The notes beneath the pieces are model-generated. The model worked only from the letters and a program-made list of their open reading frames with translations, ran no database searches and had not been told where the DNA came from. 64,000 bases of DNA, taken from Asterionella formosa. Lineage: Eukaryota. The translations under genes were made by a program, and so were the position numbers. The DNA lies in the NCBI GenBank assembly GCA_002256025.1, contig NKIB01010224.1, positions 1 through 64,000 on the forward strand, in the 5' to 3' direction. Numbering within the stretch: the stretch's first letter is position 1; the number at the start of each line of letters is the position of its first letter. Below, piece by piece: positions 15,954 through 59,611 of the stretch.

Positions 15954-16869
15954 TCGATTTTGGGGGTCTCACCGAAGAGGAAGGAGGCGAATCTGGGACT
16001 ATTCAATGAAATGCAATGAAGATATCAAACGTTGCAGCTTAGCTGCCAACAACGATGGTTCAGAATACAGGTACCGGTATACTTTTTATTGACTTAACTC
16101 CCGGTATACGTATGAAATACAGGTCCAGTAGAGCAACTCTAGTCGCAATGGTACCTGGTACTGGGGAAGATGCAGTAGGTAAGGCAAAAAAAGGAAAGCC
16201 AATCAAGCAAGGGATGATCAGCACAGAAAAAGGAAGGGCAATAAGAACGCAGATATAGATATACATTCACAAGGAACAAGATATAAAGGCACTTACCTTT
16301 ATAGGAACCCAAGTTTCGGGAGGGGAGGGGAGTGAAGTGTGGCCTATCGACCGTCTCGGTTTCGTCAATGGATTTCTTTCCTTTGCTTCCGTTTGTCCAC
16401 AACACAACAAGTTGGCTTCTCAATAGGAAGACAATGGACTAACAACAACAAGGGCGATCGAAGACCGAGTGACGTTGATGTTGCCGTTTTGTTTATGCGT
16501 CGGCACGCAACGTTCTCACTTAGTCAAGCCACAAATATGGCACATGTAGTACCGGTAAACTTGGGTACATGTACGTGCTCCAGAATCCAGACAATAGCAT
16601 ATGTAGCAGGACCAAAGTATCGTTCATTTAACAAGCGGTACCAGGTACCAGGTACGGAAAACATGTACCAAATGCCAAGCACCGGTGTTTACAGATGAGA
16701 AATCTAAGATATGGTTCCTGGATTTGAACCCCTAGCTCGAGGTAGGGTTAAAAGAATAATATTGATTCATTCTAATCAAACAAGTACCGGTAGTTTCCAA
16801 GGGCAGAATAAAGAAGTATATCACTAATTGGAGCTTTCACCATTGAACACCTTTTCCATATCATGCTTA

Positions 16870-22513: not shown

Positions 22514-22652
22514 CCTCAGGATGGTGAAGTAATACGATGTATTACCGATGACATACCGATACCTGGTTGTCAACTGGCCGATGCTCAAATGATCACTTAA
22601 CTACCGGTACCTGGTACCGGTATAGAAAACTACCGGCACCAGGTAACGGGTA

Positions 22653-22753
22653 CCAGCAAGTTGCGGTCATTTGTTGGCTGGCTAAAATACAATTTAATAT
22701 AGGATAAAGGCAGCTAAAGTTTTAGTTTCAGCACAATTACCTCAACTTGCAGG
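22653..22753. mobile_element. TA-flanked ~100-bp MITE, copy 1
   Basis: TA-CCAGCAAGTTGCGGTCA...TACCTCAACTTGCAGG-TA. Its reverse complement aligns along its length with 61829-61923. Confidence 0.7.
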
Positions 22754-23212
22754 TACCAGTACTAGGTACCGGTCCTTCTGTACTAACTAAGACCCTGCAA
22801 CTCGTAGCTGGTGGTAACAGGTACCATCACCTACTTATAGCTCGTAGGCTACATGTCTAAATACTACGTATGGCACACAACACAGTACCAGGGTACCTGG
22901 TACCAGTACCTAATATTTACGACGAGGACTGTACCGGGTAATAGGTAAACGGAACCCCTACAGCATTGCCAAGGCCGCTGATGTTGTTGGGACGCCAACA
23001 GGATAGTAGGAACATTCATAACATCCCGCCCCTTGGCTACCGGATTCGCGTCCAAGAAGTCCTCATTTTGTGATCCAACACCATTGCAACCTATACGTCA
23101 ACGACAGGACAACCGTTTCAGCAGAGCGTTTCAGCAGAGCCTTCCAGCAGACTCATTTTTTGTTTTCCTAAATCATCCATTAGTTGTTCTTGAGGTCAAA
23201 CACATCATTGCC

Positions 23213-28647: not shown

Positions 28648-30174
28648 ATGAATAGTGACAACGAGTTCGTCGTCGCCGCCCTCAGTGTTCCTTTGCTAGA
28701 CGACGTTATGAGTAACGATCCCAATGACCGGAACGATGGCCCACCCTACGACTCTGACTCGTGGAATTCAGCACAAATCATGGCCATGTTGTCCAACTTT
28801 TCGACCTCGTTCAATGTGGTCAACATCTCGTTGGTTCTTCCCATGCTGAGCATTCTGTATCCAGGAAATTCTCAAGACTCTGCTGCATGTGCTTCCTCGC
28901 TGCTGGCAGGTATGATGGTGGGACAGTTGCTTGGAGGAGCACTCGGTGACGGACCGCTGGGGCGATTGGGGGCCTTGAGATTAGTCATGGCCCTTCAAAT
29001 TGGGGCATCTCTGGCGTCTTCGCTTGTGACAGGTGCTCACGTATACATGCTCTTGGCCATGACGAGATTCGTTCTGGGCGTTGGGGCCGGTGGCGTGTAC
29101 CCATTGGCAGCCGTACTGTCGGCGGAACAACTGGGGTCGGACAAGAGTCCAAAAGGCAAGCTACAGCAGCTCAATCGCGTGGTATTAACCTTTTCTATGC
29201 AAGGACTTGGATTCTTGGCAGTTCCTATGATAGCATTGCCGTTACTGCAGTTCACGGACGAATCACAATTAGATATAGTGTGGCGAGTGATTTTAGGATT
29301 TGGCAGCGTGCCGGGAATTATCCTAATGGGTCTTCAATGGAGACTGTATCGACGAACCGACATGGAGGTGCTACCACAATTAGAAGAAGATCTCAGCGAA
29401 AATGTGCAAAACAATCAAGACAACCAAGTTGCATTTGTAATCTCAGGCGGTAAAGACGATGCTGATCCAAGTCACGATGAGGATGGAACACTTGACGACG
29501 AGGATGTCATTGATTCTGAACTTAGCCAAACTCTCTGGATGTCATTGAAAAACGAACCGCAACTTTGCAACAAATTATTGGGAACGGCAGGAACGTGGTT
29601 TTTATTTGATGTTTTATTTTATGGCAACACGCTCTTCCAACCGATTGTCATGGAGGCTACTTTTGGTGGTAAGGTCGTTGATAAACATGATGAATTAAAG
29701 AAGGCAGCAACAGACTCATTAATTTTGGCACTGATTGCTTTGCCCGGATATGTGGTTTCTGCTTTAGTTATTGGAAAGAGGTTGTGTTACGTGCAACAAA
29801 CACCTAGATACGTGCAACTTCAGGGCTTTTTTGCCATGGCCTTGCTTTACGCAATAATTGGTTCATATTGGGCATACTTGAAAACAGTGCCAAGTCTGCT
29901 TGTACTGATCTATGGTATGACATTTTTCTTTGCCAACTACGGACCTAACACTACAACGTTTGTTTTTCCATCCCTTGTTTATTCCCATGAATGTCGGTCG
30001 ACACTGAATGGGGTGGCAGCGGCTGCTGGCAAGGCAGGAGCACTACTGGGAGCAACATTGTTTGCTCCTGCAGCGGATACTTTGGGAGATAGCGATGTGA
30101 TGCTAATTTGTTCCGCCATTTCTGTTGTTGCATTTGGTTTCACATATTGCTTTGCTCGAATGCCTAATGCTTGA
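28648..30174 (+). CDS. MFS transporter of the PHT1/Pho84 phosphate transporter family (divergent)
   Basis: GQLLGGALGD..LGR, RFVLGVGAGGVYPLAAVLSAE, FSMQG, WRVILGFG, TWFLFDVLFYG, FFFANYGPNTTTFVFP, RSTLNGVAAAAGKAGA. Confidence 0.85.
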   Translation: MNSDNEFVVAALSVPLLDDVMSNDPNDRNDGPPYDSDSWNSAQIMAMLSNFSTSFNVVNISLVLPMLSILYPGNSQDSAACASSLLAGMMVGQLLGGALGDGPLGRLGALRLVMALQIGASLASSLVTGAHVYMLLAMTRFVLGVGAGGVYPLAAVLSAEQLGSDKSPKGKLQQLNRVVLTFSMQGLGFLAVPMIALPLLQFTDESQLDIVWRVILGFGSVPGIILMGLQWRLYRRTDMEVLPQLEEDLSENVQNNQDNQVAFVISGGKDDADPSHDEDGTLDDEDVIDSELSQTLWMSLKNEPQLCNKLLGTAGTWFLFDVLFYGNTLFQPIVMEATFGGKVVDKHDELKKAATDSLILALIALPGYVVSALVIGKRLCYVQQTPRYVQLQGFFAMALLYAIIGSYWAYLKTVPSLLVLIYGMTFFFANYGPNTTTFVFPSLVYSHECRSTLNGVAAAAGKAGALLGATLFAPAADTLGDSDVMLICSAISVVAFGFTYCFARMPNA

Positions 30175-32199: not shown

Positions 32200-33050
32200 T
32201 AACTACCGGTACCAGTTTGCTGTTATGGAGAGCCTAAAACCAGTATTGATGTTGGACTATTCGGTGGTTCCGTTCCCATTGTCATAATAGGCAGCTAGAA
32301 TTCGTGAACTGAGGAGGACGTAAAAGGAGTGGTGCATGAAAGACTACAGTACGTTCCTCTCACATCGTGTGTGCTGCTACGGGTACCTGGTACCAGGTAG
32401 CCACCGGTACAGTAGGGAGTATCATGAGAGTCTTCATCTCCTACTGTATGTACCGTTAGGATTGTTGTTCTACTTAAGAGATTCGTCGTCCTCCTCATTA
32501 TGATAATTGTGGTACCAGGTACCAGGTACCTGCAAGTTGCGGTCATCTTGCTGAACAAGAAGTCGAATGTTAACGACGGTTCTTACTATAAGGAAACGCA
32601 AATAAATTTCAAATTTACCACAACTTGCTGGAATACGGGAGGGTTCATGAGCGAGGAAGTACCAGGTACCACGTAGACCCGGTACCTATTTATTCAGGCC
32701 AATTAGTACCGGTAGACTGGTTGTATTTGTACCGGTCGGAGGTACCGTAGGCATGTCTTGCGCGCATCACGCACGATGTAAACCGGTACCAGGTACGATA
32801 TATGTTTCACAGTTGCTCTACCCAGACTATTTTTCCAACATTTTACCTAGTACCTGATACTGGTACTGTTATACCGGTACCACCCCCGCTATCCTCCTGG
32901 TAGTAGAACAGTACCTGGTACCAGTACTCCTACCAGGTATAGCTGTTGCTCCCACCCTCAGGGACGGTTTGTTCCAGGTACCAGGTACCTGGCAGTATGT
33001 ACAGTGCTGGTAGTATGTACAGTGCTGGTACCAGGTACCAGGTACTCTGT
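32200..33050. repeat. Dense patch of GGTACC / TACCGGTA / (TACCAGG)n motifs upstream of SEC24
   Basis: Examples: ggtaccaggtaccaggtacc (~32511-32530), ggtaccaggtacctgg (~32977) and ggtaccaggtaccaggtac (~33027). An 18-bp tandem duplication agtatgtacagtgctggt lies at ~32994-33029. Confidence 0.7.
32529..32631. mobile_element. ~100-bp MITE, copy 2 (same TIR family, divergent interior)
   Basis: TA-CCTGCAAGTTGCGGTCA...TACCACAACTTGCTGG. Confidence 0.6.
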
Positions 33051-33125: not shown

Positions 33126-36100
33126 ATGAGCGGTTTTCCACCCCCGCCGAACCAAGGCTTCCCTCCGCCCCCTGGCCATGCGCACTTTCCGCCGCCCCCG
33201 GGGTCATCAGCGGGCAGCAGCAGTCAAGGCCTACCTCCGGCTCCAGGCGGAATTCAGCGCCCCCCTCCCCCAGGAAGCTTCGCTCCTCCGCCAGCCCCCA
33301 ATGCGCATCCGCTGAATGCCGGCATGCACGGCATGTCTTTGCAAGGAAGAAGCGCTCCTCCGCCACCTGGACAACCCGCTGCTTCGCATCCACTTATGTT
33401 GTAAGTATCGACCATTTTACTTTTTCAACATCGAATTGATGAATTCCAAGAGGTCACCAGTCGTGATTTTTGTTGCATAGGACTGCATGCTTTCGTTTCG
33501 CCTGTCCTAACTCTACTTTGCAGCAAGCCCCTTCCAGCTTCAGGTCAAGGTTTTGCTCCTCCAGGATCAGGGTTTCAGGCGCCACCTGCCCCTGGTCAGC
33601 CAGCGATGTTTCAGCAGCCCCCTGCTCCTGGTCCTCCAGGGATGTTCCAGCCAGCACCGCCCCCTGCCGGTCAAGGGTTTGCTCCTCCTCCACCTGGACA
33701 ACCTCCGATGGTCGGACAACTTGCGCCTCAGGGTGCGTCTTCTCCCTTTTTCGCTTCTCAGCCAACACCTGCGCAGATGCAGCGTATTGTTCAGCCTAAT
33801 TTGCAAGCTGCTGCTCCTGGCATGCAAGGTGGGGGTCAACAGGGATTCCCAGAAAACGTTGATTTCTCGATTCAGATTCCGCAGCGTCTCTGCCGCTTTA
33901 CAGCTGGTAAAATTCCCCAGAATGCTACTATGCAAGCACAGGCCAAAATTCCAATCGGGGGAGTCCTTCGCCCCATGGCTCCTTGCGATGAAGAGGATGA
34001 TGTTGATGTAGTCCAGCCGGGAAATTCAGGTATCATCCGTTGTAAGAGATGTCGAACTTACATCAATGCATTTGTGACTTGGCTTGAGAATGGCCGTCGG
34101 TGGCGTTGTAATATTTGTGCCATGCTCAACGAGACACCTTCAACGTATTTCTGTCATTTGGATGAAGCTGGCTTGCGCCGTGACCGCGATCAGCGTCCCG
34201 AGTTGAGCAAAGGAGTCGTGGAGTTTATTGCTCCTGCCGAATACATGGTTCGTCCGCCTCAGGAGCCATCCTACTTTTTCTTGATTGATGTCACTGCGAC
34301 TGCGGTACGAAGTGGAATGTTGAACGCAACTGCCAATGCTATTCGAGACTCGTTGGATGATTTGCCAGGAGGTGGTCGCACTAAAATTGGTTTCATTACT
34401 TACGACAATTCGGTACATTACTACAATCTGGCTCCGGACCTCTCAGCACCTCAAATGATGGTGGTTTCGGACCTAAAAGAGCTTTTTGTCCCACTACCCG
34501 AACATTTGTTAGTTAACTTGAAGGAGTCGCGATCCGTGGTTGATTCTTTTTTGGATAGTTTACCAGAGATGTTTGCCAAGAACCCAGTAGTATCTCAGTC
34601 TTGTTTGGGTCCTGCTCTGAAGGCCGCCTTTACGGTCATGAAGCAGATTGGTGGAAAGATGTGTGTATTCCAGTCGATCATGCCCAATTTAGGTGATGGA
34701 GCACTTCGTCCAAGAGAAAACCCAAGCTTGATGGGGACTCCTAACGAAGTGAAACTTCTACATCCAGATGTCACATGGTATAATGAAACGGCTGTTGAGT
34801 TCAGCAGACAACAGATCAGTGTTGAAATGTTTTTGTTCCCTTATCAGTACATGGACTTCTCCGCTTTGAGCGAATTGCCAAAGCTCACTGCGGGTACGCT
34901 AAGGTCATACATTGGTTTTAACCTTGAGACCGATGGACCTCGTTTCGAGAGCGAACTCGTTAAAACTCTTACCCAAAATACAGCATTTGAAGCAGTAATG
35001 CGCATTCGTTGTACCAAGGGTATGCGAATCACCAATTTTTACGGAAATTTCTTTATTAGAGGAACTGACTTGCTCGCTCTTCCAAACTGTACACCGGATT
35101 CCGTCTTTGGGTTCGACCTGGCTCACGAAGAACAAGCCATGACTGGCTCGTATGTGACTGTCCAAGCTGCTCTCCTGTACACCAGCAGTGATGGTCAGCG
35201 TCGTATTCGAGTGTTGACGCAAGCTTTGCCTGTTACTTCCATTGCGAATGACTTGGTTGCTTCTGTCGACACGGAAGCTGTATGCAACTTACTGTCCAAG
35301 CAAGCTGTGGACATCAGCAGTAAGGCTAGCATTGACAATGCGCGAATGAGATTACAGCAGACTTGTATTGACATACTTCGTTATGCCAAGGGTGGTGACA
35401 AGCGGATAGTTTCGGGATATGCAGTGCCCTCTGCTCCAGGCCAAAACAGTGGTGGAGACGATGGCAAGATTCCTGATAATTTGGCACTTTTGCCTCTTTA
35501 CACGCTGGCATTGATGAAGAATGTTGCTTTCCGGGGAGGTACTGATGTACATCCAGACGAGCGCGTACAAGCACTGTACACTTTGAATAGCTTATGGGTT
35601 GATCAATGCCGTGACTTCATCTATCCCAAGATGTTTTCCATTCATGACATGAGCAGCAGTGTTGGACTCTCGATCGATGAAAATAGTGATCAAACGGCAG
35701 GGAGAGATAACATCTTACTTCCTCAAGCGGTTAACTTGAGTGTTGAAAGGCTAACGAGTGATGGCATCTTTCTATTGGATAACGGCTTGAGTATGGATCT
35801 ATGGGTTGGAAGGCAAGCACATCCCAACATTCTGAATTCATTGTTTGGAACTCCCACTCTTGAAAATATTGATATGAATACGGTCAAGGTTCTAACCAGC
35901 GGAGATGATTTCACAAACCGGTTTGCTGCTGTTGCGGAAGCCCTTCGGAACAAGGTTGATGAACAATTTGTGATCGCTCCTAAGGTCAATATTATCCGAG
36001 AAGGTGACACTCACATGGAAGCCCGATTCTTCTGGAATCTCATCGAGGATAGAGCGTCATTCCAGGGTGGAACACACAGCTACAGTGAGTTCATGCAGTT

Positions 36101-36647
36101 TGTCAATAATCCTTCCAGTAGTCCAGTCGGGGCCCCGCCTCCCCCGGCTCCTGGTGGGGCAAGAAGTATGGCCCCACCAGGGCCACCTGGAATGGTACGA
36201 GGTCCAGTTCCTTCCGGTCCGCCTGGTGGGTTCGTGCCTCCAGGACCGCCAGGACCAGGTGGATTTGTTCCGCCTTCTCAGGGCGGACCTCCTCCAGGAC
36301 ATGGACCTCCTTCAGGTCCGCCACGGCCAGTGGCGATGCCTCCTCAGCAAGTCAGGCAACCGCCTGCCCCAAACAGTGCGCCTCCAACCTATGGACAACA
36401 GCAACAGTATGGGCAAGCTCCTGTTCCACCGCAGCAACAGCAATATGGAATGCCTCCGCCTGGTCCACTCCAACAGCAATATGGTATGCCTCCTCCTCCT
36501 CCAGGCCCGCCTCAACAGCACCATGGTCGACCACCGCCTCCAGGTCAGGCTGCACCATCCGGTCCACCTCCACAATACGGTATGCCCCCTCCTCCGCAAC
36601 GTGGCATGCCCCCTCCTCCACCGCCAGGAGGCCAGTATCATCGATAG
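33126..36647 (+). CDS. SEC24: COPII coat subunit Sec24 with Pro-rich N- and C-terminal extensions
   Basis: Intron 33401-33523. Zinc finger IIRCKRCRTYIN...WRCNIC, RPELSKG.VEFIAP.EYMVRPP, FEAVMRIRCT, QAALLYTSSDGQRRIRV, and gelsolin-like domain ending LIEDR. Confidence 0.95.
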
Positions 36648-39750: not shown

Positions 39751-41036
39751 ATGAGCAATGATACGGACTCATCTGATGATGATCGCCTCTACCATTTCCG
39801 CAAGATGCATCGTCAACAAACAAGTGAGAATGATGCAAAGAAAATAGAAAATAGGAGAGGAGGTTCCAAGGTTGGCAAGGCTACTAACGTGAATCGCTTT
39901 CGTGCAAAGTATGATAAGCTGTTGAAGGACAACTATTTTGGCGCGAATCCAATCTACTCTCCTGCACATTTCAGGAGGCGCTTCCAGATGCATTGCTCCT
40001 TATTGCTTTGAAAAGATTCTTGAAGAATTGGTTGAGGCAAATCCATACTTTGAACAGAAGAAAGATGCCTTGCTTGGGTCTGGTCGGTTTTTCGCCACAT
40101 CAAAAGTTAACCTCAGCACTTCGAATGTTGGCTTACAGATCTTCGGCAGATCAGCTGGATGACCTCACAAGAATGGCTGAATCGACTACACTCCACAACC
40201 TAAAAGTGTTTTGTAACTCAATAATCAGCAGGTATGGAACAGAATATTTGCGAGCTCCTACTAAGGATGACATGGAAACGGTTTTACGTCTACATGAAGC
40301 AAAGGGTTGGCCAGGACTTCTTGGTTCATTGGATGTGATGCAGTGGGAATGGAAGAATTGTCCCAAGGCACACAGAGGAGCGTTTCAAGGAAAAGATGGA
40401 GTGGCTACTGTTGCTTTGGAAGCTGCAGTTGATTGTAGACTTTGGTTCTACCATGCATGGTTTGGAATGCCAGGTGCTAACAACGATCTCAATATTTTGG
40501 ATCGTTCTCCGTTTTTCTGGGATTTGACAGCTAGAAGGACTCCTGCCGTCAACTTCACAATCAACACCAAAGAACACAATCTAGGTTACTATTGGGTTGA
40601 TGGCATCTATCCAGAGTGGCACATTTTTGTCAAAACAATTTCGGAACCACAAGGTGCAAAGCGTGCACATTTTTCAATGGTTCAAGATGCCCAACGCAAA
40701 GACGTAGAGCGAGCATTTGGTGTGCTACAAGCAAGGTGGAGGATCCTGGCGCTTCTGTGCAAACTTTGGTCAGTGGGTGCAATGAATCATGTCATCATTG
40801 CATGTATCATACTACACAACATGTTTATAGAAGATGAGTGGGATACAAAAGACACAAACAAATATTTATTTGATAATATTCAGGATGGCCTTTTGGTTGA
40901 CAATGTGAATCACGACAATGTGCATGCTTTTCTAGATTTCAAAGTAATTCGAATGAACTACATGAATGAAGGTGAGCACTATCAATTGCGAAATGATTTG
41001 ATTGAGCATTTGTGGACTCGAAATGAGGATAAATAA
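39751..41036 (+). pseudogene. Harbinger DDE transposase, frameshifted
   Basis: FRRRF, GFSPHQKLTSALRMLAY, GWPGLLGSLDVMQWEWKNCP, NNDLNIL, YWVDGIYP, RKDVERAFGVLQARW. The 5' part is spread over three frames, with shifts near 40005 and 40072. Confidence 0.9.
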
Positions 41037-46140: not shown

Positions 46141-46300
46141 CTGGCAATTTAGAAGTGCTCCCTAGAACATTATCCTGGAAAGAAAAGCAAACTAGCTAGC
46201 TCACCATGTTGCTTAATTCGAATTCCAAAAAGTTCAAGAACACCATGGCGCTATGTAACATTTCCCTCTAAAGAATTACAATAATAATCGAGTCAAAGTA

Positions 46301-49300
46301 TTAGTCTATTATAACATAAATATGTTTCATGACAATTCCACTTGTTGCATTCGCCCTTTGTATCGCTTCATTTGATGCAATCACCGCAATTGAGGGATCT
46401 TCCAAGTTAGCCATGTGTTTAATAAACTCCACAAAGTCAATGCGAGATGTATTCAAAATCTGGTCTCGCCACAATTGACGGATGTCCGACGTTTCCTCTC
46501 GGATATACTCTATCAAGAAATCCCAACCAATCTTGTTCGGTTGAGGTGCAGATCCGTCCAATTCAGCAATTGTTCCAATGATGGCATGAATGGCCTCATC
46601 TGGAAGAGTTTCAGTTGTCAGAATGCTCTGGCCCAAGAAAACACTGGCTTGATCATAAATGTCTAGCGTTCTCCCAATGTGTGGATCACGATAACTCATA
46701 AATTTAATTGTTCCACTTCGAAATTCAATGTGACAGTGGACATCAGTAGCACCTCCCTGTTTACTAATATAGTCATGTAAGTAACCATCTTCCAAATACT
46801 TTGACACGACAGATGCCGCACCATCAATTGGCTCCCAAATTGCATATAATTGACCTCCTTTTCCGACGTGGGAGATAGTTTCTGGGTATTCAATCCCTTC
46901 ATCAACAACAGGGGCCATCACAGTTTGCTCCTGTCGAATCTGCGGGACCCACGGATGAACATACGTGGATGGATGCTGGAATCGTGTCGATCGATCATTA
47001 TCTGGAATAATATCCTTGAGAAACACCATGATAGACGACTGCGCTGCATTTAAAAGATCAGCCTCACCCGTAAGGCTGATGACCATTCCATTTCGGTTTC
47101 CTTCTACAATTGCATTTCTGACCTGGTCAAGCTTGACAACGAAGTCCGCCCAGTCGCCCTTTGCATCATCTCGAGCTTGGATCAAATATTGAAGGCTTGA
47201 AATTCCCTCAAGGCGTTCGCGAATCAATCCTTTCTTTGAGTACCGAGCTTCAATTCGACGACCAACGAATTCATCGCCATTTTTCCCCAATTTTTCAGTC
47301 AGCTTTTCAATCATATCCTCAAGAATTTCAATAGTCTTGGCTTGGTTGAACTTGGCACCAAACCAGATAATTTGACCAAGCAACTCGAAATATTGTGAAA
47401 GGCTATCTGCGAGGCACTTGCCTCGGAAGAAGAACTTGGTCGCGAAGTGTGACTCGTCGGTGACAAGGAAAGATTTCCAGTCGGATCCTGCTGGTCGAAC
47501 CTCTTCAACCATGATTTCAGTAAAAATGCCTCCAGAATCCTTGCCGATGGCGTTGGCAAGTTGATCTTCCCTCCAGAGCTTGGTTCCGGTCTCCAAAAAC
47601 AGTCTTGAGATCAGTGGTAGAAGGGGCATATTATAAAATTCCACATTTCCTAGATCCAATCCAAAATCGACATATAAAATTCCGAAGCTTGATTTAACAT
47701 TGGTCTCCGCAACCAAAATGTTTTCCAACACGCGTAATTTAATCTTGTTTGGACGAGTTACTGGATCGATGTCGTCGAGTGTTAAATGAGGAATAGTATT
47801 AATGACAGCGGGTGTATCGGCTGTATTTTGTTTAAGAATCATGCAATCGGTCTCGTCAAGTAGAGCAGAGAAATCTTCAGCTTTTATATTCTGACTGATT
47901 CGATCAATGCGAGCTTGATCAGCCTTAAGTTGGCCTTCAACATAGTGATTATCTGGGAAGAGTTGCACAATGACTTTGTGTCCATTATCTATTAAATGAT
48001 CTCGAAGCAATGTTATAAAGAATTGAGACCCATTTTGCTTGATCTCGGCAACCAGGGCTCCAATGGCGTCCGAAAAGGTAAATGCATCCTCTGGACCTCG
48101 GCCATCATATGTCCACTTTGTCAAGGCCATGAACATGATGGAAATTCCTCGAGGCTGTACACCAGTTGCATGGTCTTTCAGTTGAAGTAAAACAGAGTTA
48201 AAAGCTGCTGAAATTTCATCAGTGCGGAAGCCTGCAGTCTGGTTTATCTCGGCCAATGTGTCTGTAATAATGCCTTCGACTTTTTTCACGTCGCCGCGTC
48301 CCACGCCTTTCATACCAACGCTAAATGTCCATTGCATGAGGTCAGTATTAAGGCCCCCACCAATTACTTCTCTGCCTTTTCCTGAAGTTTCTAACCTATT
48401 GCGCAGAATTCCTGTCGGCGATTCAATCAACATGTAATTCAACATTCGCCAGGCAATTTCAGTCTTTGCATCCATCACGCGATCGTTGATTAGCCACGAC
48501 ATCATGACACGATAGTCACCATTTTCCAACGTAGATGCGTACTCGTGAATCTCGCGCGGACTATTTTCCTTATTGATCTTGTCTTGCCATTTCGGAGACG
48601 AGTTTTCTCTTACATCTTCGTTCAAGTCGTAGGCGCTGACGTAATCGTCTACCTGTTTCAGTCCTTCAGTGACATCCTCAAGCGGACCATACAAAAATAC
48701 CTGAGCATTGGAAGGATGATAAAACTTTTGATGGTATTCAATCAAGGAGGCTCGCGTCACAGATACGATTTCCTCAGGCAATCCGCTGTTATCATAGTTG
48801 TATTGTGTGTCTGGAAAGAGAGCGCGATGAGCATACTTATGAATGCTTAAATCAGGATCCGAATATGCCCCTTTTTGTGTTTCTAACACTACCCCATTGA
48901 AGCGGTATTGTGCTTCTTTGTTTGGATACTTCTGGTAGCGCTTCTCGAGGCGCCAACCTTCCTGCCTAAAGATCCAACTTCCGTGCTCCTGAAGGATGCT
49001 GGGGTCAAAAACTGCGTCCAGATTCACAGCAATTAGGTTTGAGAAGTCCTTCGAATTCCTTGAAGCACAAGTGTACACAGTACGGTCCCCAAAGATAAAC
49101 TGTTTGAGATAAGTCTGTAGCGAACCGCGTCGGAGTTCATCGAAGGGATCCTTCAACGGGAATTTTTTAGAGCCATCCAACACAGAACGCATCAATATGT
49201 GAGCAACTCCATTATCCGATTCGGGCAGAGTCCGAAAGGATATTCCAAATACGGAATCCTGTTCGATATCGTCAGGAACCAGTGTCATTACTTCGGTGTA

Positions 49301-49654
49301 AGTCTTCTTGTGATAGTAGACTACAAGGTCAGCCTGGATCTCAGGTAAGTGTGTGGCTGAAATCACAGAATAACCGCTGTGGTCGATTACAGATTCATCG
49401 GCGGATCCTTTTGAATAAGAGGGAGGCTTCGAAAATAAGGCGACTACGAGGATGACTACAGTGAGAATACCGAATCCAATCAGGACTCTGCAGTTTCGGG
49501 TTTCTCGCTTCCGGTGTAATCTTTCGTACTCTTCTGCCGTTGGAAAGCGATGAATTATATCAGGTAGAGAATGATGATTCGAGATTTCATTCATGTCTAT
49601 GCCATAGTCGTGCGGGGTCGGCAAGAGATCAGTGGGATGTGGACGTGTAGACAT
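46301..49654 (-). CDS. Membrane-anchored, catalytically degenerate presequence protease (M16C/PreP) homologue, paralogue A
   Basis: Intronless 1117-aa ORF. TM segment VLIGFGILTVVILVVALF follows a basic stretch. PreP-like motifs: FGISFRT, GVAHILMRSVLDGS, LDAVF, FRQEGW, YHQKFYHPSNA, FSVGMKG, SYRDP. Confidence 0.9.
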   Translation of the reverse strand: MSTRPHPTDLLPTPHDYGIDMNEISNHHSLPDIIHRFPTAEEYERLHRKRETRNCRVLIGFGILTVVILVVALFSKPPSYSKGSADESVIDHSGYSVISATHLPEIQADLVVYYHKKTYTEVMTLVPDDIEQDSVFGISFRTLPESDNGVAHILMRSVLDGSKKFPLKDPFDELRRGSLQTYLKQFIFGDRTVYTCASRNSKDFSNLIAVNLDAVFDPSILQEHGSWIFRQEGWRLEKRYQKYPNKEAQYRFNGVVLETQKGAYSDPDLSIHKYAHRALFPDTQYNYDNSGLPEEIVSVTRASLIEYHQKFYHPSNAQVFLYGPLEDVTEGLKQVDDYVSAYDLNEDVRENSSPKWQDKINKENSPREIHEYASTLENGDYRVMMSWLINDRVMDAKTEIAWRMLNYMLIESPTGILRNRLETSGKGREVIGGGLNTDLMQWTFSVGMKGVGRGDVKKVEGIITDTLAEINQTAGFRTDEISAAFNSVLLQLKDHATGVQPRGISIMFMALTKWTYDGRGPEDAFTFSDAIGALVAEIKQNGSQFFITLLRDHLIDNGHKVIVQLFPDNHYVEGQLKADQARIDRISQNIKAEDFSALLDETDCMILKQNTADTPAVINTIPHLTLDDIDPVTRPNKIKLRVLENILVAETNVKSSFGILYVDFGLDLGNVEFYNMPLLPLISRLFLETGTKLWREDQLANAIGKDSGGIFTEIMVEEVRPAGSDWKSFLVTDESHFATKFFFRGKCLADSLSQYFELLGQIIWFGAKFNQAKTIEILEDMIEKLTEKLGKNGDEFVGRRIEARYSKKGLIRERLEGISSLQYLIQARDDAKGDWADFVVKLDQVRNAIVEGNRNGMVISLTGEADLLNAAQSSIMVFLKDIIPDNDRSTRFQHPSTYVHPWVPQIRQEQTVMAPVVDEGIEYPETISHVGKGGQLYAIWEPIDGAASVVSKYLEDGYLHDYISKQGGATDVHCHIEFRSGTIKFMSYRDPHIGRTLDIYDQASVFLGQSILTTETLPDEAIHAIIGTIAELDGSAPQPNKIGWDFLIEYIREETSDIRQLWRDQILNTSRIDFVEFIKHMANLEDPSIAVIASNEAIQRANATSGIVMKHIYVIID

Positions 49655-50169
49655 GCTAGGATTCGACTTCAGGGGCGATGCACAATGATAGCATGGGACT
49701 ACTTCTCAAATGAGTTTGTTTTATGATTGCTCATGTTTACAACCGTACACAAGTACGGAGTTTATAATACCGATAGACTCTCCTATGCATATTGACATGA
49801 TACAAAGGTAGTGAACAGGTTGACCCCTAAACGGGTAACGGTACCTGGTACTGTCAATATTATATCCCACCGGGTATAATATTATATGTTAGTCGTCCGT
49901 TGACAATAATGCCGGTTATCATACTAATACTCATACATATTTATAAAATAGACATTCTATGTACACACCTACACAGTACTCATACATATTTAACGGTCCC
50001 TGGCATAAACTTCACCGATATACCGGTACTAGGTACTTTCGGCTTTTGTTTTAGCGGAATGAGAAGGGGAGTCATACGCTATACATAGAGCCATATGTAC
50101 AGGTAGTCGTACTGATATTATCATCCGTGAATGATTATTCCCTTGTACTCTACATGGTACCTGGTACCA

Positions 50170-50213
50170 GTTGAGCAGGACGGATCATAATGACCCGTCC
50201 AGTCCTGCTCAAC
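50170..50213. repeat. Stem-loop ~30 nt upstream of the paralogue B start codon
   Basis: gttgagcaggac (50170-50181) pairs perfectly with gtcctgctcaac (50202-50213). There is alternative inner pairing ggacgg.tcat/atga.ccgtcc. Confidence 0.65.
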
Positions 50214-50244
50214 GCCCCATAAATGAACCGGAATTGTGCCGACC

Positions 50245-53200
50245 ATGCTTAAGCGTCCCACTGACCTCCTGCCGTCGCCGCCGGATTATGGCATCGACAT
50301 TAATGATATCGCAAGTCATCACTCGTTGCCTGATATGATCCATCGCTTCCCAACGGCGGCAGAATATGAAAGATTACACCAGAAGCGGCGTGAAACTCGA
50401 AAAAGAAGAATTGTTGTCGCCGTATGCGTTCTCGTGGCAGCTGTCTTCATTGCCGCCTTCTTTCCAAATAGGTCTAGCGGTAGCACCTATGGCTCCGCTG
50501 CCGACTCTGTCATCGAACACAGCGAGTATACTGTGGTTTCAGCTACCTATCTAGATGAAATCCAGGCAGACCTAGTTGTCTACTTTCACAAGAAGACACT
50601 GACAGAAGTTATGACTCTTGTTCCCGACGATGCACAACAGGATTCCGTCTTTGGGATGTCCTTTAGAACTCTACCGGAATCGGATAACGGAGCTGCTCAT
50701 GTGTTGATGCGTTCTGTGCTGGACGGCTCTAAAAAATTCCCCTTGAAGGATCCTTTTGAAGAACTTCGGCGCGGGTCGCTCCAGACCTACCTCAAGCAAT
50801 TCGTCTTTGGGGACCGCACGGTGTACGCTTGCGCTTCGCGAAACTCGAAGGACTTTGCAAATATCATCGATGTATATTTGGACGCTGTATTTAACCCAAA
50901 CGTCGTGAGTGACAGCGGTAATTGGATCTTTCGGCAGGAGGCTTGGCGACTCGAAAAATACGGCCATAGCAACCCCCACAGCAACGATCAAACGCATCAC
51001 TTCAATGGAGCTGCGCTGCAAATTCAAAAGGGTGCCTACTCAGATCCAGATGTCAGTATTCATAAGTATGCTCATCGTGCTCTTTTTGCTGACACGCAAT
51101 ACAAGTATGACAACTCTGGAACACCGGCTGGAATCTTGACTTTGACAAGAAATGGGTTGATTGACTATCACAAGAAGTATTATCATCCTACTAATGCTCA
51201 GATATTTTTGTATGGTAATGTTGGGGATGTTAATGAAGGAATGAATCAGGTGGACGACTATATCAGCGCCTACGAAGCGCAACAAGATATCAGGGATCAA
51301 TCGGTTCCTCAATGGCAAAACAAGGTCTTTCAAGACGCACCACGAGAACTTCATGATTATGCATCCTCGGTCGCAAATGGTGACCATCATGTGATGATGT
51401 CTTGGTTGATCAATGAGAATCAGTTGGATGCAAAAACTGAAATTGCCTGGCGAATGCTGAACTATTTATTGATTCAATCACCGACAAGTATTCTGCGCAA
51501 GGTGTTGGAATATTCTGGCGCTGGAAGAGAAGTCATTGGAGGCGGTCTCAAAAGCGATCTTTTGCAGTGGACTTTCAATGTTGGTATGAAGGGCGTTAGA
51601 AGCGACGATGTTGAAACAGTCGAAGATATCATCACAGATGCTTTGAACGAGATTTTGCAAAATGGAGGCTTTAACGACGAAGAACTTCAAGCAGCTTTCA
51701 ACTCTGTTGAATTCCAACTTACAGACCACGCCACTGGTATAGTTCCTCGAGGTATTTCTTTCATGTTTGCGGCCTTTGCAAAGTGGACTTATGATGGCCA
51801 CCTCCCAGCTGATGCCTTTCAATTTTCGTCGGGGATTGATGAAATAATCAATGAAGTCTCCAAGAATGGAAATCAACTTTTTACGACGCTAATCAAAGAG
51901 AATTTGATTGAGAACAATCAAAAAGTTATCGTTGAGCTTTCCCCGGATACCAAATATGTAGTCAAGCAGTTGAAGGGAGACCAAGACCGAGTAGACCTCC
52001 TTCGTCAAAGTTTGTCAGACCAGGAGTTCTTCGCCATTGTCGACGAGACTGGGGAAATGAGCCTTAAACAGAAAATGGACGACCCTCCCGCTGTCGTTGA
52101 TACTATTCCTCATTTGGCCATCAGCGATATCGAACCGAAAACTCGTGCAAATACCATAAAGTTGTCCATCGCCGAGAATATTTTGGTGGCAGAAACCAAC
52201 ATTGAATCTAGCTTTGGAATTCTGTACATCGATTTTGGATTGGATTTGGGAAATGTAGATTTTCCTGATCTTCATCTTTTGCCACTGTTGTCAAGACTGT
52301 TTCTGGAGACTGGAACTAAGCTTTGGACAGAAGATCAAGTGAGCAACGCTATCGGCAAAAGTTCCGGCGGAATCTATACCAAGATCCTAGTTGAAGGGGT
52401 CCGAGCAAAAGGATCAGACTGGGCGTCATTCGTTGTAACTGACGAGTCGCACTTCGTTACAAAGCTTTTCTTCCGAGGCAAGTGTCTGGCAGAAAACCTA
52501 CCGCAATATTTTGAGTTGCTTGCTCAGATTATCTGGTATGGTGCTGATTTGAATCAAGCCAGGACAATTGAAATCATGGATGATATGATTGAAAAATTAA
52601 CGGAACTTATAGGAAAGAGTGGTGATGACTTCGTCGCTCGTCGAATTGAAGGTCGCTACTCAAACTATGGGTTCATTCGTGAACGCCTTGAGGGAATTAC
52701 AAATCTACAAATGCTAAGTGACGCACGCAATACGGCTGTAAACGATTGGGCGAATTTCAAGAACAGACTTAACACCATGAGAAAAACAATTGTGGAAGGG
52801 CACCGAAATGGAATGGTCCTCAGTATGACAGGTGAACAAGATCGATTGATATCTGCGAAGTCAGTTATATCAAGTTTCCTCAAGGATACTGTCCCAGATA
52901 ACAAAAGTGCGACTCCGTTCTCGCATCCATCCATAGATGAACATCCTTGGGTCCCCATCATAAGAAATGCAGGCTTATCCCCAAAGTCGAACGAAGGGAT
53001 TGAGTACCCATTACCTATCTCCCACGTCGGAAAGGGAGCCAAATTGTATGAAGTCTGGGAGGCAATCGATGGCGCAGCATCTGTCGTTTCCAAGTATTTA
53101 GAAGACGGTTACTTGCGCGAAATGATTACTCTCCAGGGTGGTGCTGCTAGTGTCCACTGTCACATTGACTTTCAAAGTGGAACGTTGAAACTTTTTAGTT

Positions 53201-53589
53201 ACCGTGATCCACATATTGCGAAAACGCTTGATGTTTTCAATAAAGCAAGTGTCGTCTTGGGCGAGAGAGTTCTCACAAGTGATACTCTTCCAGCTGAGGC
53301 CATTCATGCTGTCATAGGAACAATCGCCGAACTAGATGGATCATCGCCTCAACCTGACAAGATTGGCTGGGATTTCTTGATTGAGTACATGCGAGAAGAA
53401 ACGTCAGATGTTCGTCAACTCTGGAGGGACCAGATCTTGAATACGTCTCATATTGACTTTGTGGAGTACATTGAACACTTGGCTAACTGGGCACAGCCAA
53501 CAATTGCAGTGATTGCATCAAATGAAGCAATACAGGATGCAAATACAACCCGTGGAATTGAGCTGCAACAAGTAAAAATTTTAGTTTGA
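50245..53589 (+). CDS. Membrane-anchored, catalytically degenerate presequence protease (M16C/PreP) homologue, paralogue B
   Basis: Intronless ORF collinear with paralogue A. TM segment IVVAVCVLVAAVFIAAFF follows RRETRKRR. Motifs: GAAHVLMRSVLDGS, VYLDAVF, YHKKYYHPTNA, SYRDP. Confidence 0.9.
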   Translation: MLKRPTDLLPSPPDYGIDINDIASHHSLPDMIHRFPTAAEYERLHQKRRETRKRRIVVAVCVLVAAVFIAAFFPNRSSGSTYGSAADSVIEHSEYTVVSATYLDEIQADLVVYFHKKTLTEVMTLVPDDAQQDSVFGMSFRTLPESDNGAAHVLMRSVLDGSKKFPLKDPFEELRRGSLQTYLKQFVFGDRTVYACASRNSKDFANIIDVYLDAVFNPNVVSDSGNWIFRQEAWRLEKYGHSNPHSNDQTHHFNGAALQIQKGAYSDPDVSIHKYAHRALFADTQYKYDNSGTPAGILTLTRNGLIDYHKKYYHPTNAQIFLYGNVGDVNEGMNQVDDYISAYEAQQDIRDQSVPQWQNKVFQDAPRELHDYASSVANGDHHVMMSWLINENQLDAKTEIAWRMLNYLLIQSPTSILRKVLEYSGAGREVIGGGLKSDLLQWTFNVGMKGVRSDDVETVEDIITDALNEILQNGGFNDEELQAAFNSVEFQLTDHATGIVPRGISFMFAAFAKWTYDGHLPADAFQFSSGIDEIINEVSKNGNQLFTTLIKENLIENNQKVIVELSPDTKYVVKQLKGDQDRVDLLRQSLSDQEFFAIVDETGEMSLKQKMDDPPAVVDTIPHLAISDIEPKTRANTIKLSIAENILVAETNIESSFGILYIDFGLDLGNVDFPDLHLLPLLSRLFLETGTKLWTEDQVSNAIGKSSGGIYTKILVEGVRAKGSDWASFVVTDESHFVTKLFFRGKCLAENLPQYFELLAQIIWYGADLNQARTIEIMDDMIEKLTELIGKSGDDFVARRIEGRYSNYGFIRERLEGITNLQMLSDARNTAVNDWANFKNRLNTMRKTIVEGHRNGMVLSMTGEQDRLISAKSVISSFLKDTVPDNKSATPFSHPSIDEHPWVPIIRNAGLSPKSNEGIEYPLPISHVGKGAKLYEVWEAIDGAASVVSKYLEDGYLREMITLQGGAASVHCHIDFQSGTLKLFSYRDPHIAKTLDVFNKASVVLGERVLTSDTLPAEAIHAVIGTIAELDGSSPQPDKIGWDFLIEYMREETSDVRQLWRDQILNTSHIDFVEYIEHLANWAQPTIAVIASNEAIQDANTTRGIELQQVKILV

Positions 53590-53912
53590 TTAATGCAGCA
53601 GAGTGTTTGGGCTAACAGAGTCTACAAGGTGCAATATATGTACATTTGATAACGATTTAGGGGTGATCTTAACAGAGATGCAATTATACTTCTTTTGTAT
53701 CTTAAGGTTGTGGCCCCACAGTTACACATTGCAAGGTCTGTATTTCCCAAAATATTTTTGATGCACCTCAATCCACACATTACATACAACTAAATAAAAT
53801 AGTTAAAAAGTAAAGTTAGCTTTCACCAAAACCACCACTTTGCATATGCTTAGATACAGTCATTGGTCAACTTAAGGGTATGTTCTTTCCTCAGATATGG
53901 TAAGGACCTCAT

Positions 53913-56749: not shown

Positions 56750-57199
56750 TGTGTGGATATATATTTGATGTATGAGATTGTAGATGTGATGACGGCCAAA
56801 GTCAAAGTCCAGAGACAACAGAGCGAACAAAGCCAATTGTGAAATACATCATATCGGGAACATCATTGTCCTATGTATTTTAGACGTACACATCTATTCA
56901 TCACTATGAAGATAAGCACCGGTAAACCGGCATACCAGTACATGATGTATGTAGGGTGTAGACTCTACCAGGTACCTGGTACCAGGATAAATAACGGTCC
57001 ATACAAGTACTGCGTGGTGTATTGCACTGGGAATTCTGTGTGGGCATGATTTGATTGGCACCAATGAAACCATAAAAATAAAAAACTCATTTTGAATTTC
57101 TTGGCGGCTGCCGTCGCCGCTCTTTGCTTGATTGTTGATTAAGTATACCGGTAGTGATCTTAGTTATCGAACTGATCAATTATCCAAAGTCCTATCGCT

Positions 57200-59611
57200 A
57201 TGATCACTTCCGATAGCGACGAGGACTTCGCTTTGTCTAGCTTGAAGAAGAAGGACAAGAAGGACGCTGCTAAGAAGAAGGACGTCGCGAAGAAGAAGGA
57301 CGTCGCTAAGAAGAAGGACGTCGCTAAGAAGAAAGACGTCGCCAAGAGGAAGGACGTTGTCAAGAAGAAGGTCACCGCTGTCCCTAAGAAAACTAACTCG
57401 AAGAATGTGGCCAAACCTGATCCAGCTCCATCATCGTCTGTCACCAAGAAGCGCAAGAACGGCGACAGCGTCATCACATCGTCTCCCATCAAGAAAGTGA
57501 AAGTCGAAGGCACCCTTGCAAAGGAGCTCAAGAAAATGGAAAAGGCAGAACGCCTACAATATGCAATGCAAGCATTTCTCTGGTGGAACGCGGAGGAACT
57601 GCCCGAGGGATATCAGTGGAATACCATGGAACACGCCGGGGTTTCCTTTCCCGAGCCTTACGTGCCGCACAATATCAAGATGAAATATGATGGCAAGGAA
57701 ATAACCTTGACTCCAGTGCAAGAGGAAGCGTGAGTTATCTATTAGGCAATGTGGCACAATTATTATTGCGAGCATGATCTTTGCTCACAACTACAACGCA
57801 CCTTTTCCAACAGCATGACGTTCTATGCAGCAATGGACCCCGACGGCATGCACCTGGGCAATCCAAAGACAAGCAAAATATTTACCAAAAACTTCTTTGC
57901 AGATTTCAAGGCCACACTTGGCAAGAGTCATGTCATCAAAGATATCAGCAAATGCGACTTCGAACCCGTTCGAAAACACTTAAACGAACAAAAGATTGTC
58001 CGCAACGTCATTACTGACGTTCAGAAGAAGGCGAACAAGGACGACCGCAATCAAGTCTTGTTCAAGTTTGGGTACGCGGTGGTCGACGGACACCTGGAAA
58101 AGGTGGGAAACTACAACATGGAACCACCTGGGGCATTTAGAGGACGAGGAGAGCATCCAAAGATGGGCAAGCTCAAGTCGAGGGTCAACCCAGAACAAGT
58201 GGCATTGAATGTGTCCGAGTGTGCGCCAGTTCCCCGCTGTCCTGTCCCAGGACATTCATGGGGAGACCTGCGACATGATCCCCAAGTCCAGTGGTTAGCC
58301 CAGTGGAAGGAGAATATCAATAATCAAGTCAAGTATATGCAGTTGGCAGCACAGTCGTCGTTCAAAGGGAAGTCGGACCGGAGCAAGTATAACAAAGCAG
58401 CAGTCTTGTGCGAAAAGGTGATTCATGTAAGAGCAGCCACTCGAAAGTCTTTGAAGAGCAAGGACACGGAAGAACGTCAGTTGGCAACAGCTGTGTGGGT
58501 GATTGACAGGTTGGCTCTTCGTGTAGGTGGGGAAAAAGACACGGAAGAAGAAGCCGATACAGTTGGTTGCTGTTCTCTGCGTGTTGAGCACATGCAGTTT
58601 GACCCGAATGATGAAGGAGGCGACAACAAGGAAATTGAATTGAAGTTTTTAGGTAAGGATTCCATGTTGTACCAGCAAACGATTGACTTTGGGGCAGCAC
58701 TGTACAACGATAACAATGGGATGGGAAAGCAAGTCTACGATAATTTCAAGGGGTTTTGCAAGAGCAAGAAGAAATCAGAACAAATATTTGACAAGATCAA
58801 TCCATCCATATTGAATGTGCACTTGAAGCAGTTTATGGATGGATTGACGGCCAAGGTGTTCCGTACATACAATGCCTCGAAAACTCTACAAGATGAGTTA
58901 AAGAAAACCGAGGAGAAGAAATCCTGGCGATCGTTGACCGTTCCCGAAAAGGTGATTGCATACAATAACGCCAATCGAGAAGTTGCCATTCTTTGTAACC
59001 ATCAACGATCAGTGAGTAAGGCACAAGAAACCCAACTGGATTTGATTGGGAAGAAGCTATCCACCCTTAAGAAACAAAAGAAGCAATTGAAGATTATTCT
59101 CAAGGGCATTAACTCCGGCGAGAAGCCGAAGATTCCAATTAAGATGTCTGAAGCAGAAATGATTGAAAAGGCAAATAAGGCAGTGTTTAAGGCCAAAGAG
59201 ATGAAGGAACAAGCAAAGACGAACGAGGAGAAGATCAAAGCTACAGAACAAGATATGAAGGCGAAGCAGATGAAGCGAGACCTCAACGATCAGAAGTTCA
59301 ATCAAGCACACTTGTGGGAAAAAGAACCATCTGCAGATCAAGTCGTTAAGCGACTTCAAAACTGGACGGCCAAGATCACCAAGATGGAAATGGATCTCAA
59401 GCACAAACACGATAATAAAGAGGTTTCTTTGGGAACTTCCAAAATCAACTATATGGATCCTCGTATTTCCGTTGCTTGGTGTAAACGAAACGAAGTGCCC
59501 ATTGAAAAAATCTTTTCGAAAACGCTTCGCGACAAGTTCAATTGGGCTATGGCGGTATCGCCGGACTGGGAATTCAATGCCAATGTCGCCAAGCAACCAA
59601 AACTAGAATAG
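57200..59611 (+). CDS. TOP1: DNA topoisomerase I (type IB)
   Basis: [75 protein letters not shown], catalytic SKINYMDPR. Intron 57730-57813. Confidence 0.96.
57257..57370 (+). repeat. 18-bp coding minisatellite encoding (KKKDVA)n in TOP1
   Basis: aagaagaaggacgtcgct-type units repeated about six times. Confidence 0.85.

Follow-up and report, generated by a model that had tools for sequence, protein, structure and literature searches.

What can a pair of proteins do that appear to have kept the whole fold of a peptide-degrading chamber and to have lost its catalytic residues? This question is raised by two open reading frames (ORFs), here called winA and winB, which lie head to head in a contig of the diatom Asterionella formosa (NKIB01010224.1, NCBI GenBank assembly GCA_002256025.1); the window, i.e., the whole stretch of DNA that was analysed, covers positions 1 to 64,000 of this contig, 64,000 nucleotides in all. 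A first-pass annotation, made by a model from the letters of the window, had read the pair as membrane-anchored and catalytically disabled homologues of the presequence protease PreP, a member of peptidase family M16C. Having followed this reading up computationally, we propose, with a probability of roughly 50%, that winA and winB form a membrane-tethered PreP chamber that would bind peptides without cutting them and whose tail would have a role in the cytosol.

Under the standard code and with ATG starts, winA (46301..49654, minus strand, stop codon included) specifies 1117 amino acids (aa), a call supported by Pfam, the alignment to 2fge, an AlphaFold2 model and RNA contigs, and its paralogue winB (50245..53589, plus strand, ATG at 50245) specifies 1114 aa; both are intronless, and they diverge across 590 bp. 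Translation table 11 would start winB at an in-frame GTG (50236-53589, plus strand, 1117 aa), and the public protein P0003, a near-identical copy of winB, begins at the methionine of 50245. The two proteins are identical at 733 of 1113 aa (66%) and their aligned codons are 72% identical at the nucleotide level; by an arithmetic estimate, the chance of an open frame of ~1115 codons is roughly (61/64)^1115, or ~1e-23. A tblastn search of the window with winA found no M16C fragments besides these two genes. The picture given by the first-pass annotation, of two intact, intronless, divergent paralogues of ~1115 aa some 590 bp apart, is upheld by the ORF calls and by the colinear RNA contigs described below.

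As judged from profiles and modelling, both proteins are full-length M16C (PreP/falcilysin) homologues with the predicted shape of a single-chain, four-domain clamshell. They pass the Pfam gathering scores for M16C_assoc (96.8 bits in winA, 100.8 in winB), PreP_C (98.2 and 86.9) and Peptidase_M16_C (56.4 and 64.2), and the catalytic-domain model PF00675 is absent in winA and below its cut-off in winB (18.1 vs 22.3 bits). Among solved structures, the top match is AtPreP1 (2fge; E 2e-150), with an alignment spanning residues 85-1103. An AlphaFold2 model of winA, built with the same 60-sequence alignment that served for column conservation, reached a mean predicted local distance difference test score (pLDDT) of 88.8 and a predicted template-modelling score of 0.85; residues 1-39 are disordered (pLDDT < 50), residues 40-74 form one continuous helix, and the four-domain body follows after a linker modelled with low confidence (75-81). 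In Foldseek, this model matched closed AtPreP1 (2fge_A) with E 1.6e-78 and a target-normalised template-modelling score of 0.91 over 1034 aligned columns, and partially closed falcilysin (8wyt) with a query-normalised score of 0.85 at 23% sequence identity, and it fitted the open forms less well (0.69-0.74).

On this body, the residues that make M16C enzymes peptidases are replaced. The zinc motif HxxEH reads HILMR in winA (aa 152-156, 49187..49201, minus strand) and HVLMR in winB (aa 152-156, 50698..50712, plus strand); in the alignment with 2fge_A, H152 of winA coincides with H77 and is kept, and M155 and R156 stand at the catalytic Glu80 and at H81. The sequence of 2fge_A itself prints HILQH at 77-81, which we take to reflect a crystallised E80Q mutant. 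The NAFT motif of the active-site beta-strand reads KQFI in winA (aa 184-187, 49094..49105, minus strand), K184 and I187 corresponding to N109 and T112 of 2fge_A, and KQFV in winB. The distal zinc-ligand segment reads GVVLETQKG in winA (aa 254-262, 48869..48895, minus strand) and GAALQIQKG in winB (aa 255-263, 51007..51033, plus strand), so that E177 has become T259 in winA and Ile in winB, and Q260 of winA stands where intact enzymes have Met (M178). Finally, the R/Y (arginine and tyrosine) pair of the VRxxGGAYG motif, presumably R848/Y854 of VRVSGGAYG in AtPreP1, is missing from ISKQGGATD in winA (aa 963-971, 46742..46768, minus strand; S964/T970) and from ITLQGGAAS in winB (aa 961-969, 53125..53151, plus strand; T and A). 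This pair lies in domain 4 and, according to excerpts of a 2025 M16 review, completes the active site (PMC12731061). All four replacements had been quoted by the first-pass annotation, and the motif columns and the 2fge alignment confirm them.

Column conservation sets these changes against the rest of the protein. Across the 60-sequence alignment, we compared 48 catalytically intact M16C sequences with 8 close dead relatives, all from the group that we call dead1 (its members are given below): 172 columns are at least 85% conserved in the intact set, 108 of them are kept in at least 75% of the dead1 sequences, and 24 are changed. The changed columns include every catalytic or substrate position that is 100% conserved, namely E80, H81, N109, T112, E177 (Glu in 100% of the 48 intact sequences), M178 and, within the R/Y motif, R, Y and G. 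Since 108 of the 172 columns are kept while the changed set takes in all of these positions, the pattern indicates that the scaffold was kept and the chemistry removed, as expected of the disabled M16C homologues that had been proposed.

Could the remodelled site still be an enzyme? Hydrolysis of a peptide or another substrate would then have to proceed through the retained His152 and the new Met155, Arg156 and Gln260, and in dead1 three of these are indeed largely constant (His152 and Met155 in 7/8, Gln260 in 8/8); moreover, excerpts of the same review report low activity for bovine core I, which has a modified motif (PMC12731061). Yet the R/Y pair disappeared along with the general base and two of the three metal ligands, the Pfam catalytic-domain model stays under threshold, and the second dead group (dead2) keeps other residues (VVVER, YIVEK, HVVSQ, TITEY), no common alternative site being evident. 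We regard continued catalysis as very unlikely.

Nor do the genes look like relics. A Nei-Gojobori comparison of winA and winB gave a synonymous divergence (dS) of 1.12, a nonsynonymous divergence (dN) of 0.227 and a dN/dS of 0.20 (codon bootstrap 0.16-0.24), with dS near saturation, which would if anything inflate the ratio. The pseudo-active-site block (aa 140-200) has a dN/dS of 0.03 at 92% aa identity and the disordered tail (aa 1-50) one of 0.12 at 77% identity, and the basic cluster plus transmembrane helix (aa 51-76) is far freer (0.64; 27% identity). Both copies are thus under purifying selection, which is strongest at the pseudo-active site.

Both genes are also transcribed. Among the 22 public runs listed, 20 hold the stretch or part of it and ten hold at least half of its words, with 19 RNA runs and 17 studies represented, most of these studies being lake or freshwater metatranscriptomes. 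Contig coverage was compared in 4 runs from 3 studies, including two polyA libraries; contig depth cannot rank the two genes. In 4/4 runs each gene lies under its own RNA contig or contigs, colinear with the DNA and free of joints and indels (46271-49614 and 46352-49699 for winA; 50265-53742, 50306-53694 or separate pieces for winB). No contig bridges the spacer in these 4 runs, depth is 0 at 49965-50255 in all of them, and the outer flanks are uncovered. From these separate, colinear contigs with uncovered spacer and flanks it follows that the genes are intronless, separately transcribed and expressed. In run X3, a single contig has a loose end of 26 letters without a match ahead of position 50277, a point 32 nt into the winB ORF; strain variation or faulty assembly may account for it, and the contigs of other runs begin at 50265 or 50306 without such an end.

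That winA and winB are functionless relics, a duplicated pair on its way to pseudogenisation, could be argued from their lost catalytic residues and from the rarity of the close clade in public data, but both frames have stayed open for ~1115 codons at a dS of 1.12 under this selection, both are transcribed in every run compared, and transcripts of the dead clades occur in Thalassionema nitzschioides and Stauroneis constricta as well. We consider this reading extremely improbable. Silence or a dN/dS near 1 would have spoken for it; the expression and the ratio found instead agree with the earlier suggestion that both copies stayed open under selection. That the two proteins are catalytically dead yet selected is, in our judgement, highly probable.

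What replaces the enzyme's targeting peptide is a predicted membrane anchor. Both proteins begin with a conserved, acidic tail of ~55 aa carrying PTDLLP, DYGID and EYERL and, after these, a basic cluster. In winA this tail (aa 1-56, 49487..49654, minus strand), predicted to be cytosolic, holds PTDLLP, DYGID, HHSLPD-IHRFPTAEEYERL and the basic cluster; the winB tail covers aa 1-55 (50245..50409, plus strand). Next comes a putative signal-anchor helix of 19-20 uncharged residues (winA: aa 57-75, 49430..49486, minus strand, Kyte-Doolittle 2.88; winB: aa 56-74, 50410..50466, plus strand, 2.96), which is the sole hydrophobic peak above 1.6 in each protein (Kyte-Doolittle, 19 residues), and the M16C body begins only ~10-20 residues past it. 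Lysine and arginine are concentrated before the helix, with 6 vs 2 in the 15 residues before and after it in winA and 8 vs 1 in winB, and the same bias holds in 23 of 24 members of the anchored clade. By the positive-inside rule, a charge bias of this kind predicts an N-in/C-out, type II signal anchor, and because more basic residues precede than follow the single helix, we think it likely that winA and winB are type II membrane proteins. A typical cleaved signal peptide is shorter than this helix and lies nearer the N-terminus. Thus the tail, basic cluster and single helix described by the first-pass annotation are confirmed by alignment and hydrophobicity, and of its type II claim the helix and the charge bias stand, with exposure in the lumen or at the cell surface still a prediction.

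The suggestion that YERL and DLL in the tail serve as sorting signals fared less well. Among the 9 dead1 tails, an [E/D]-Y-[D/E] core stands beside the basic cluster in 8 and the YxxPhi reading fits just 5; DLL occurs only in winA, winB and P0002 (P0004 has NLL). Acidic dileucine signals follow the consensus [DE]xxxL[LI], which the tail DLL does not fit. An ESM Atlas search with the tail plus the transmembrane helix (aa 1-80) returned no usable match.

To place the pair among its relatives, 1.84 billion representatives were scanned, which yielded 5991 matches, and the motif columns were checked in 107 rows (the window pair, P0002-P0025, P0070, P0102 and P0121-P0199). HxxEH is present in 85 of these rows, absent from 15 and gapped in 7. 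The rows without it are dead1 (winA, winB, P0002, P0003, P0004, P0005, P0006, P0007, P0121, P0122 and P0133), with HxxM[RHK], HVLQR, NVLLN or NVLMK, and dead2 (P0102, P0125, P0128 and P0130). An N-terminal helix was found in 13 of the 15, the exceptions being P0122 and the truncated P0125. Many relatives with the same tail-helix layout keep HxLEH, S/NEMKG and RxxNGAYG: 12 of the 24 anchored-clade sequences inspected are catalytically intact, and the metagenome locus L001 adds one more. Across the 24 clade members the helix starts 28-143 residues from the N-terminus. All six named members of the anchored clade are diatoms (Thalassiosira profunda, Thalassiosira sp., Chaetoceros, Proboscia alata, T. 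nitzschioides and S. constricta), and the named members of the dead clades are two pennates, with transcripts known from the last two species. As a side observation, the Cys of the SVLCGS block, aligned with winA residue 160, occurs in 31 of 35 M16C proteins that are not anchored and is missing from 12/12 dead-clade proteins (Asp in winA and winB) and from 6/13 intact anchored ones.

Trees were built from hand-chosen rows, with fragments below ~900 aa excluded from the 59-row and 41-row trees and admitted, together with L001, to a tree of the N-terminal half. In the 59-row tree, dead1 and dead2 form one group (Shimodaira-Hasegawa-like approximate likelihood ratio test, SH-aLRT, 100) inside a 24-row group (99) that also holds 11 anchored intact proteins and P0123; two proteins labelled as anchored fall outside it, P0126, which joins the anchored clade in the 41-row tree, and P0159 from Chara braunii. 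In the 41-row tree, six canonical diatom PrePs (Cylindrotheca, Odontella, Stephanocyclus, Nitzschia, Mayamaea and Attheya) form a clade (SH-aLRT 100) whose sister (100) is the anchored clade (22 rows, 96), with the dead clades nested within the latter (100) and other ochrophyte PrePs outside. The canonical diatom PrePs keep HILEH, NEMKG and RVxGGAYG. These topologies indicate that the anchored lineage is a diatom-internal duplicate of organellar PreP, and, since HxLEH, the distal Glu and the R/Y pair survive in most anchored relatives, that the anchor is older than the loss of catalysis. Of the checks proposed at the outset, the one for an anchored HxxMR clade beside a normal PreP came out positive, in that motif columns and trees show anchored proteins without HxxEH there, with the refinement that the anchored clade consists mostly of intact members and contains two dead subclades with different losses.

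How often catalysis was lost is less clear-cut. Dead1 drops the Glu and the second His, and dead2 drops the first His and mostly keeps Glu and Arg; these differing patterns suggest that catalysis was lost twice. In the N-half tree, the intact L001 and P0162 fall inside a 16-row group (99) that holds both dead clades, L001 standing beside dead2 (SH-aLRT 94). A single loss is also possible: an approximately unbiased test does not reject dead1 plus dead2 as one clade (lnL difference 2.33, p 0.42). Close to the pair, winA, winB, P0002 and P0004 form a weakly resolved near-star at 65-68% mutual identity, with support of only 75/82 for grouping winA with winB, and the close clade is scarce in public data, amounting to four 90%-identity clusters at that distance. 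The inverted duplication is old, and P0002 and P0004 may be either orthologues or further paralogues.

This ancestry brings up another alternative, that winA and winB are organellar pseudopeptidases whose helix is part of an unusual import or anchor signal, placing them in a membrane of the plastid envelope or of a mitochondrion, or in the periplastidial compartment, and not in the general secretory pathway or at the cell surface. In each of the 7 canonical diatom PrePs inspected, the N-terminus holds a signal peptide and then an AF motif, which excerpts of the literature describe as an ASAFAP-type diatom plastid signal (PMC4329603); the anchored lineage descends from such a plastid-type PreP, the end of the winB helix (AAFFP) recalls the ASAFAP cleavage motif (PMC4329603), and a short Ser/Gly-rich stretch follows the helix. 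However, an uncharged helix of this length starting so far into the protein is unlike the signal peptides of those 7 PrePs, an acidic and conserved tail would be needless in a pre-region that is cleaved off, and the AFFP-like string is missing from winA, P0002 and P0004. An organellar location in this sense is therefore unlikely, and the earlier statement that the proteins lack an organellar transit peptide is borne out, the signal-peptide-plus-AF presequence of their canonical relatives being absent.

The abundance of intact anchored relatives brings up one more, that the dead proteins work with or against an intact M16C paralogue anchored in the same membrane, as its regulatory partners, handing over or withholding its substrates, or stabilising or trafficking the active enzyme. 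Models for this would be alpha-MPP, which serves beta-MPP, and the inactive rhomboid homologues, which serve their clients; excerpts on alpha-MPP describe an HxxDR, a similar decay of the motif (PMC11266112). Such intact relatives are common in diatoms, as the counts above show, and P0008, P0011, P0162 and L001 are the nearest. Against this, excerpts of the 2025 review describe M16A and M16C enzymes as monomeric, each with an inactive half of its own already built in (PMC12731061), and we rate a regulatory partnership as rather improbable.

The pair can be compared with several known systems. PreP (AtPreP1/2, human PreP/PITRM1 and yeast Cym1; MEROPS M16C) has the same four-domain clamshell, long helical hinge and Pfam domains, but is a soluble, zinc-dependent organellar peptidase with HILEH, distal Glu and R/Y pair (PMC12731061, excerpts), whereas in winA and winB all but the first His are replaced and the targeting peptide has given way to a conserved tail and one transmembrane helix. 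Failing HxxEH, the distal Glu, the R/Y pair and the soluble organellar layout, the two would be filed as non-peptidase M16C homologues. Falcilysin of Plasmodium falciparum shares M16C kinship and a source organism whose red-derived complex plastid has an endomembrane routing, and is reported, again in excerpts, in the digestive vacuole, apicoplast and mitochondrion (PMC12731061); it differs in being active (HILEH...E) and in not being described as membrane-anchored, and it was left out of the trees. The intact anchored M16C proteins of diatoms (among them P0017 of T. profunda, P0023 of Chaetoceros, P0126 of P. alata, P0008, P0011 and L001) belong to the same clade and have the same layout, but keep HxLEH, S/NEMKG and RxxNGAYG, and no sequence relationship links their tails with the PTDLLP...EYERL tail. 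Alpha-MPP and the bc1 core proteins (M16B) have lost HxxEH (HxxDR in alpha-MPP) and the R/Y pair and kept a substrate-holding role (PMC11266112, PMC12731061 and PMC9291397, excerpts); these, however, are ~50-kDa, two-domain mitochondrial subunits with an active partner and a glycine-rich loop, whereas winA and winB are whole single-chain M16C proteins, dead and anchored.

Transferrin receptor 1 offers a design analogy: it is a type II protein with an inactive, peptidase-like ectodomain that acts as a receptor and has a YxxPhi endocytosis signal in its cytosolic tail. It is a dimeric animal protein of the M28-like family, and no homology with winA and winB is claimed.

Put together, the non-cutting, membrane-tethered chamber that we favour would have arisen and would work as follows. 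A diatom plastid-type PreP would have been anchored first, most simply by turning the ER signal peptide of its bipartite plastid presequence into an uncleaved signal anchor and adding a tail; catalysis would have been lost later in a sublineage, and the inverted duplication would have followed in this genome. In the present proteins, the conserved, disordered tail and the basic cluster would lie on the cytosolic side, the helix would span the membrane, and the short stalk behind it would hold the complete clamshell on the luminal or extracellular side, its chamber kept without hydrolysis now that the catalytic Glu, two of three zinc ligands, the Asn/Thr of the NAFT strand and the R/Y pair are replaced. 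As the chamber closes, the remodelled site would bind peptides in extended form, or unfolded segments, within it and leave them uncut, and the tail would offer short linear motifs that link binding to cytosolic trafficking or signalling machinery. That selection is tightest in the helix-strand block, which bears the metal site and the substrate-pairing strand in active M16 enzymes, would fit retained binding, short of proving it; peptide binding as such we put forward tentatively, at somewhat below even odds.

Several points weigh against this proposal. The head-to-head pair was not seen elsewhere, a metagenome scan giving only 9 loci, none closer than 41% identity, and the loci L001 and L002 among them carry one intact anchored M16C gene each rather than a pair. 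In active M16C enzymes, too, no part is better conserved than the active-site region, so that its low dN/dS may partly reflect structural constraint, and the first zinc-ligand His kept in dead1 leaves room for some binding of metal or ligand. The topology is read from hydrophobicity and the positive-inside rule, and luminal exposure lacks independent support, since counts of cysteines and of N-glycosylation sequons (N-x-S/T) do not separate the anchored clade from organellar PrePs.

Going further, a diatom peptidasome might have been turned into a family of membrane receptors that capture specific extended peptides in the endomembrane lumen or at the cell surface, the tail (EY[DE], with YxxPhi in some) reporting or sorting the loaded receptor. 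Drawn by analogy, this extension is improbable as it stands, and the receptor and sorting-signal roles are speculative, as are the chaperone or cargo-adaptor roles and the joint action of the pair that the first-pass annotation had considered. Among candidate ligands, the closest to the ancestral specificity would be parts of plastid precursors that resemble transit peptides and pass through the ER-derived outer compartment; extracellular signalling peptides are another candidate.

The surroundings of the pair add a few observations of their own. The divergent spacer (49655..50244, 590 bp) presumably serves both genes as a promoter region, shared or bidirectional, and contains a perfect 12-nt inverted repeat, GTTGAGCAGGAC / GTCCTGCTCAAC (50170-50181 / 50202-50213, 20-nt loop), 32-75 nt upstream of the winB ATG, and two copies, at 49840 and 50156, of a partly palindromic 12-mer, GGTACCTGGTAC. 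An extended inverted duplication was considered and rejected: the downstream flanks and the spacer halves resemble each other no more than shuffled sequences do, and only the coding parts are alike. Allowing one mismatch at most, GGTACCTGGTAC occurs 43 times in the window (both strands and overlaps counted) vs 0.04 expected, a count reached in 0/100 shuffles. Its sites (7300, 13860-13974, 16150-16656, 20085, 22606-22904, 32382-33046, 45613, 49840, 50156 and 56965-56983) do not form a tandem array, and those placed, all but the one at 20085, lie upstream of ORF starts, namely those of adaptin, V-ATPase d, G-alpha, Sec1, Sec24, DUF3605, both M16C genes and topoisomerase I; the 12-mer may be a dispersed repeat or a promoter element used across the genome.

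Genes of membrane traffic abound in the window (3992-6649, 12046-12885 and 14520-15953 on the minus strand; 23213-24964, 28648-30174 and 33606-36647 on the plus strand) and include an adaptin large subunit, V-ATPase subunit d, G-alpha (two ORFs with a probable intron between them), Sec1, a major facilitator superfamily transporter and Sec24; their richness near the M16C pair is probably coincidental. The Sec1-family gene (23213-24964, plus strand) is 65% identical to those of L001 (188-2050) and L002 (451-2313), where it stands head to head with the intact anchored M16C gene; in the window the two lie 21 kb apart, which looks like remnant microsynteny of a locus combining Sec1 and an anchored M16C. 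A Plant_tran/DDE_Tnp_4 ORF encoding a PIF/Harbinger-type transposase (40065-41036, plus strand; E 4.6e-75) lies 5 kb from the pair. Topoisomerase I extends over two adjacent plus-strand ORFs (57200-57733 and 57749-59611), presumably owing to a short intron or frame change near 57733-57749, and the first of them contains an 18-nt tandem repeat of 6.4 copies (57257-57371).

We found nothing in the literature on membrane-anchored or wholly inactive M16C proteins, or on diatom PreP paralogues, in a search whose coverage leaves out most subscription journals. Excerpts of M16 reviews describe M16C enzymes as soluble organellar (or parasite vacuolar) peptidases and name as inactive M16 members M16B subunits only, alpha-MPP and the bc1 core proteins (PMC11266112, PMC12731061); the words "transmembrane" and "membrane-anchored" do not occur in the 2025 review (PMC12731061), and an evolutionary survey of targeting-peptide peptidases mentions neither diatoms nor transmembrane forms.

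The proteins described here would accordingly open up an unstudied family of diatom membrane proteins, active and dead, of interest to M16 enzymology and to diatom cell biology, at a value limited for now by their being known from sequence, model and transcripts. To our knowledge, the luminal receptors of the diatom endomembrane and plastid-import system are poorly known, and winA, winB and their relatives are candidates for peptide recognition in this complex system. For the M16 family, they may provide a natural non-cutting, peptide-trapping chamber in which substrate capture by the clamshell could be studied. More broadly, the lineage would be a case of stepwise neofunctionalisation within one algal group, from organellar enzyme to membrane-anchored enzyme to anchored pseudoenzyme, with selection concentrated on the remodelled site and the disordered tail.

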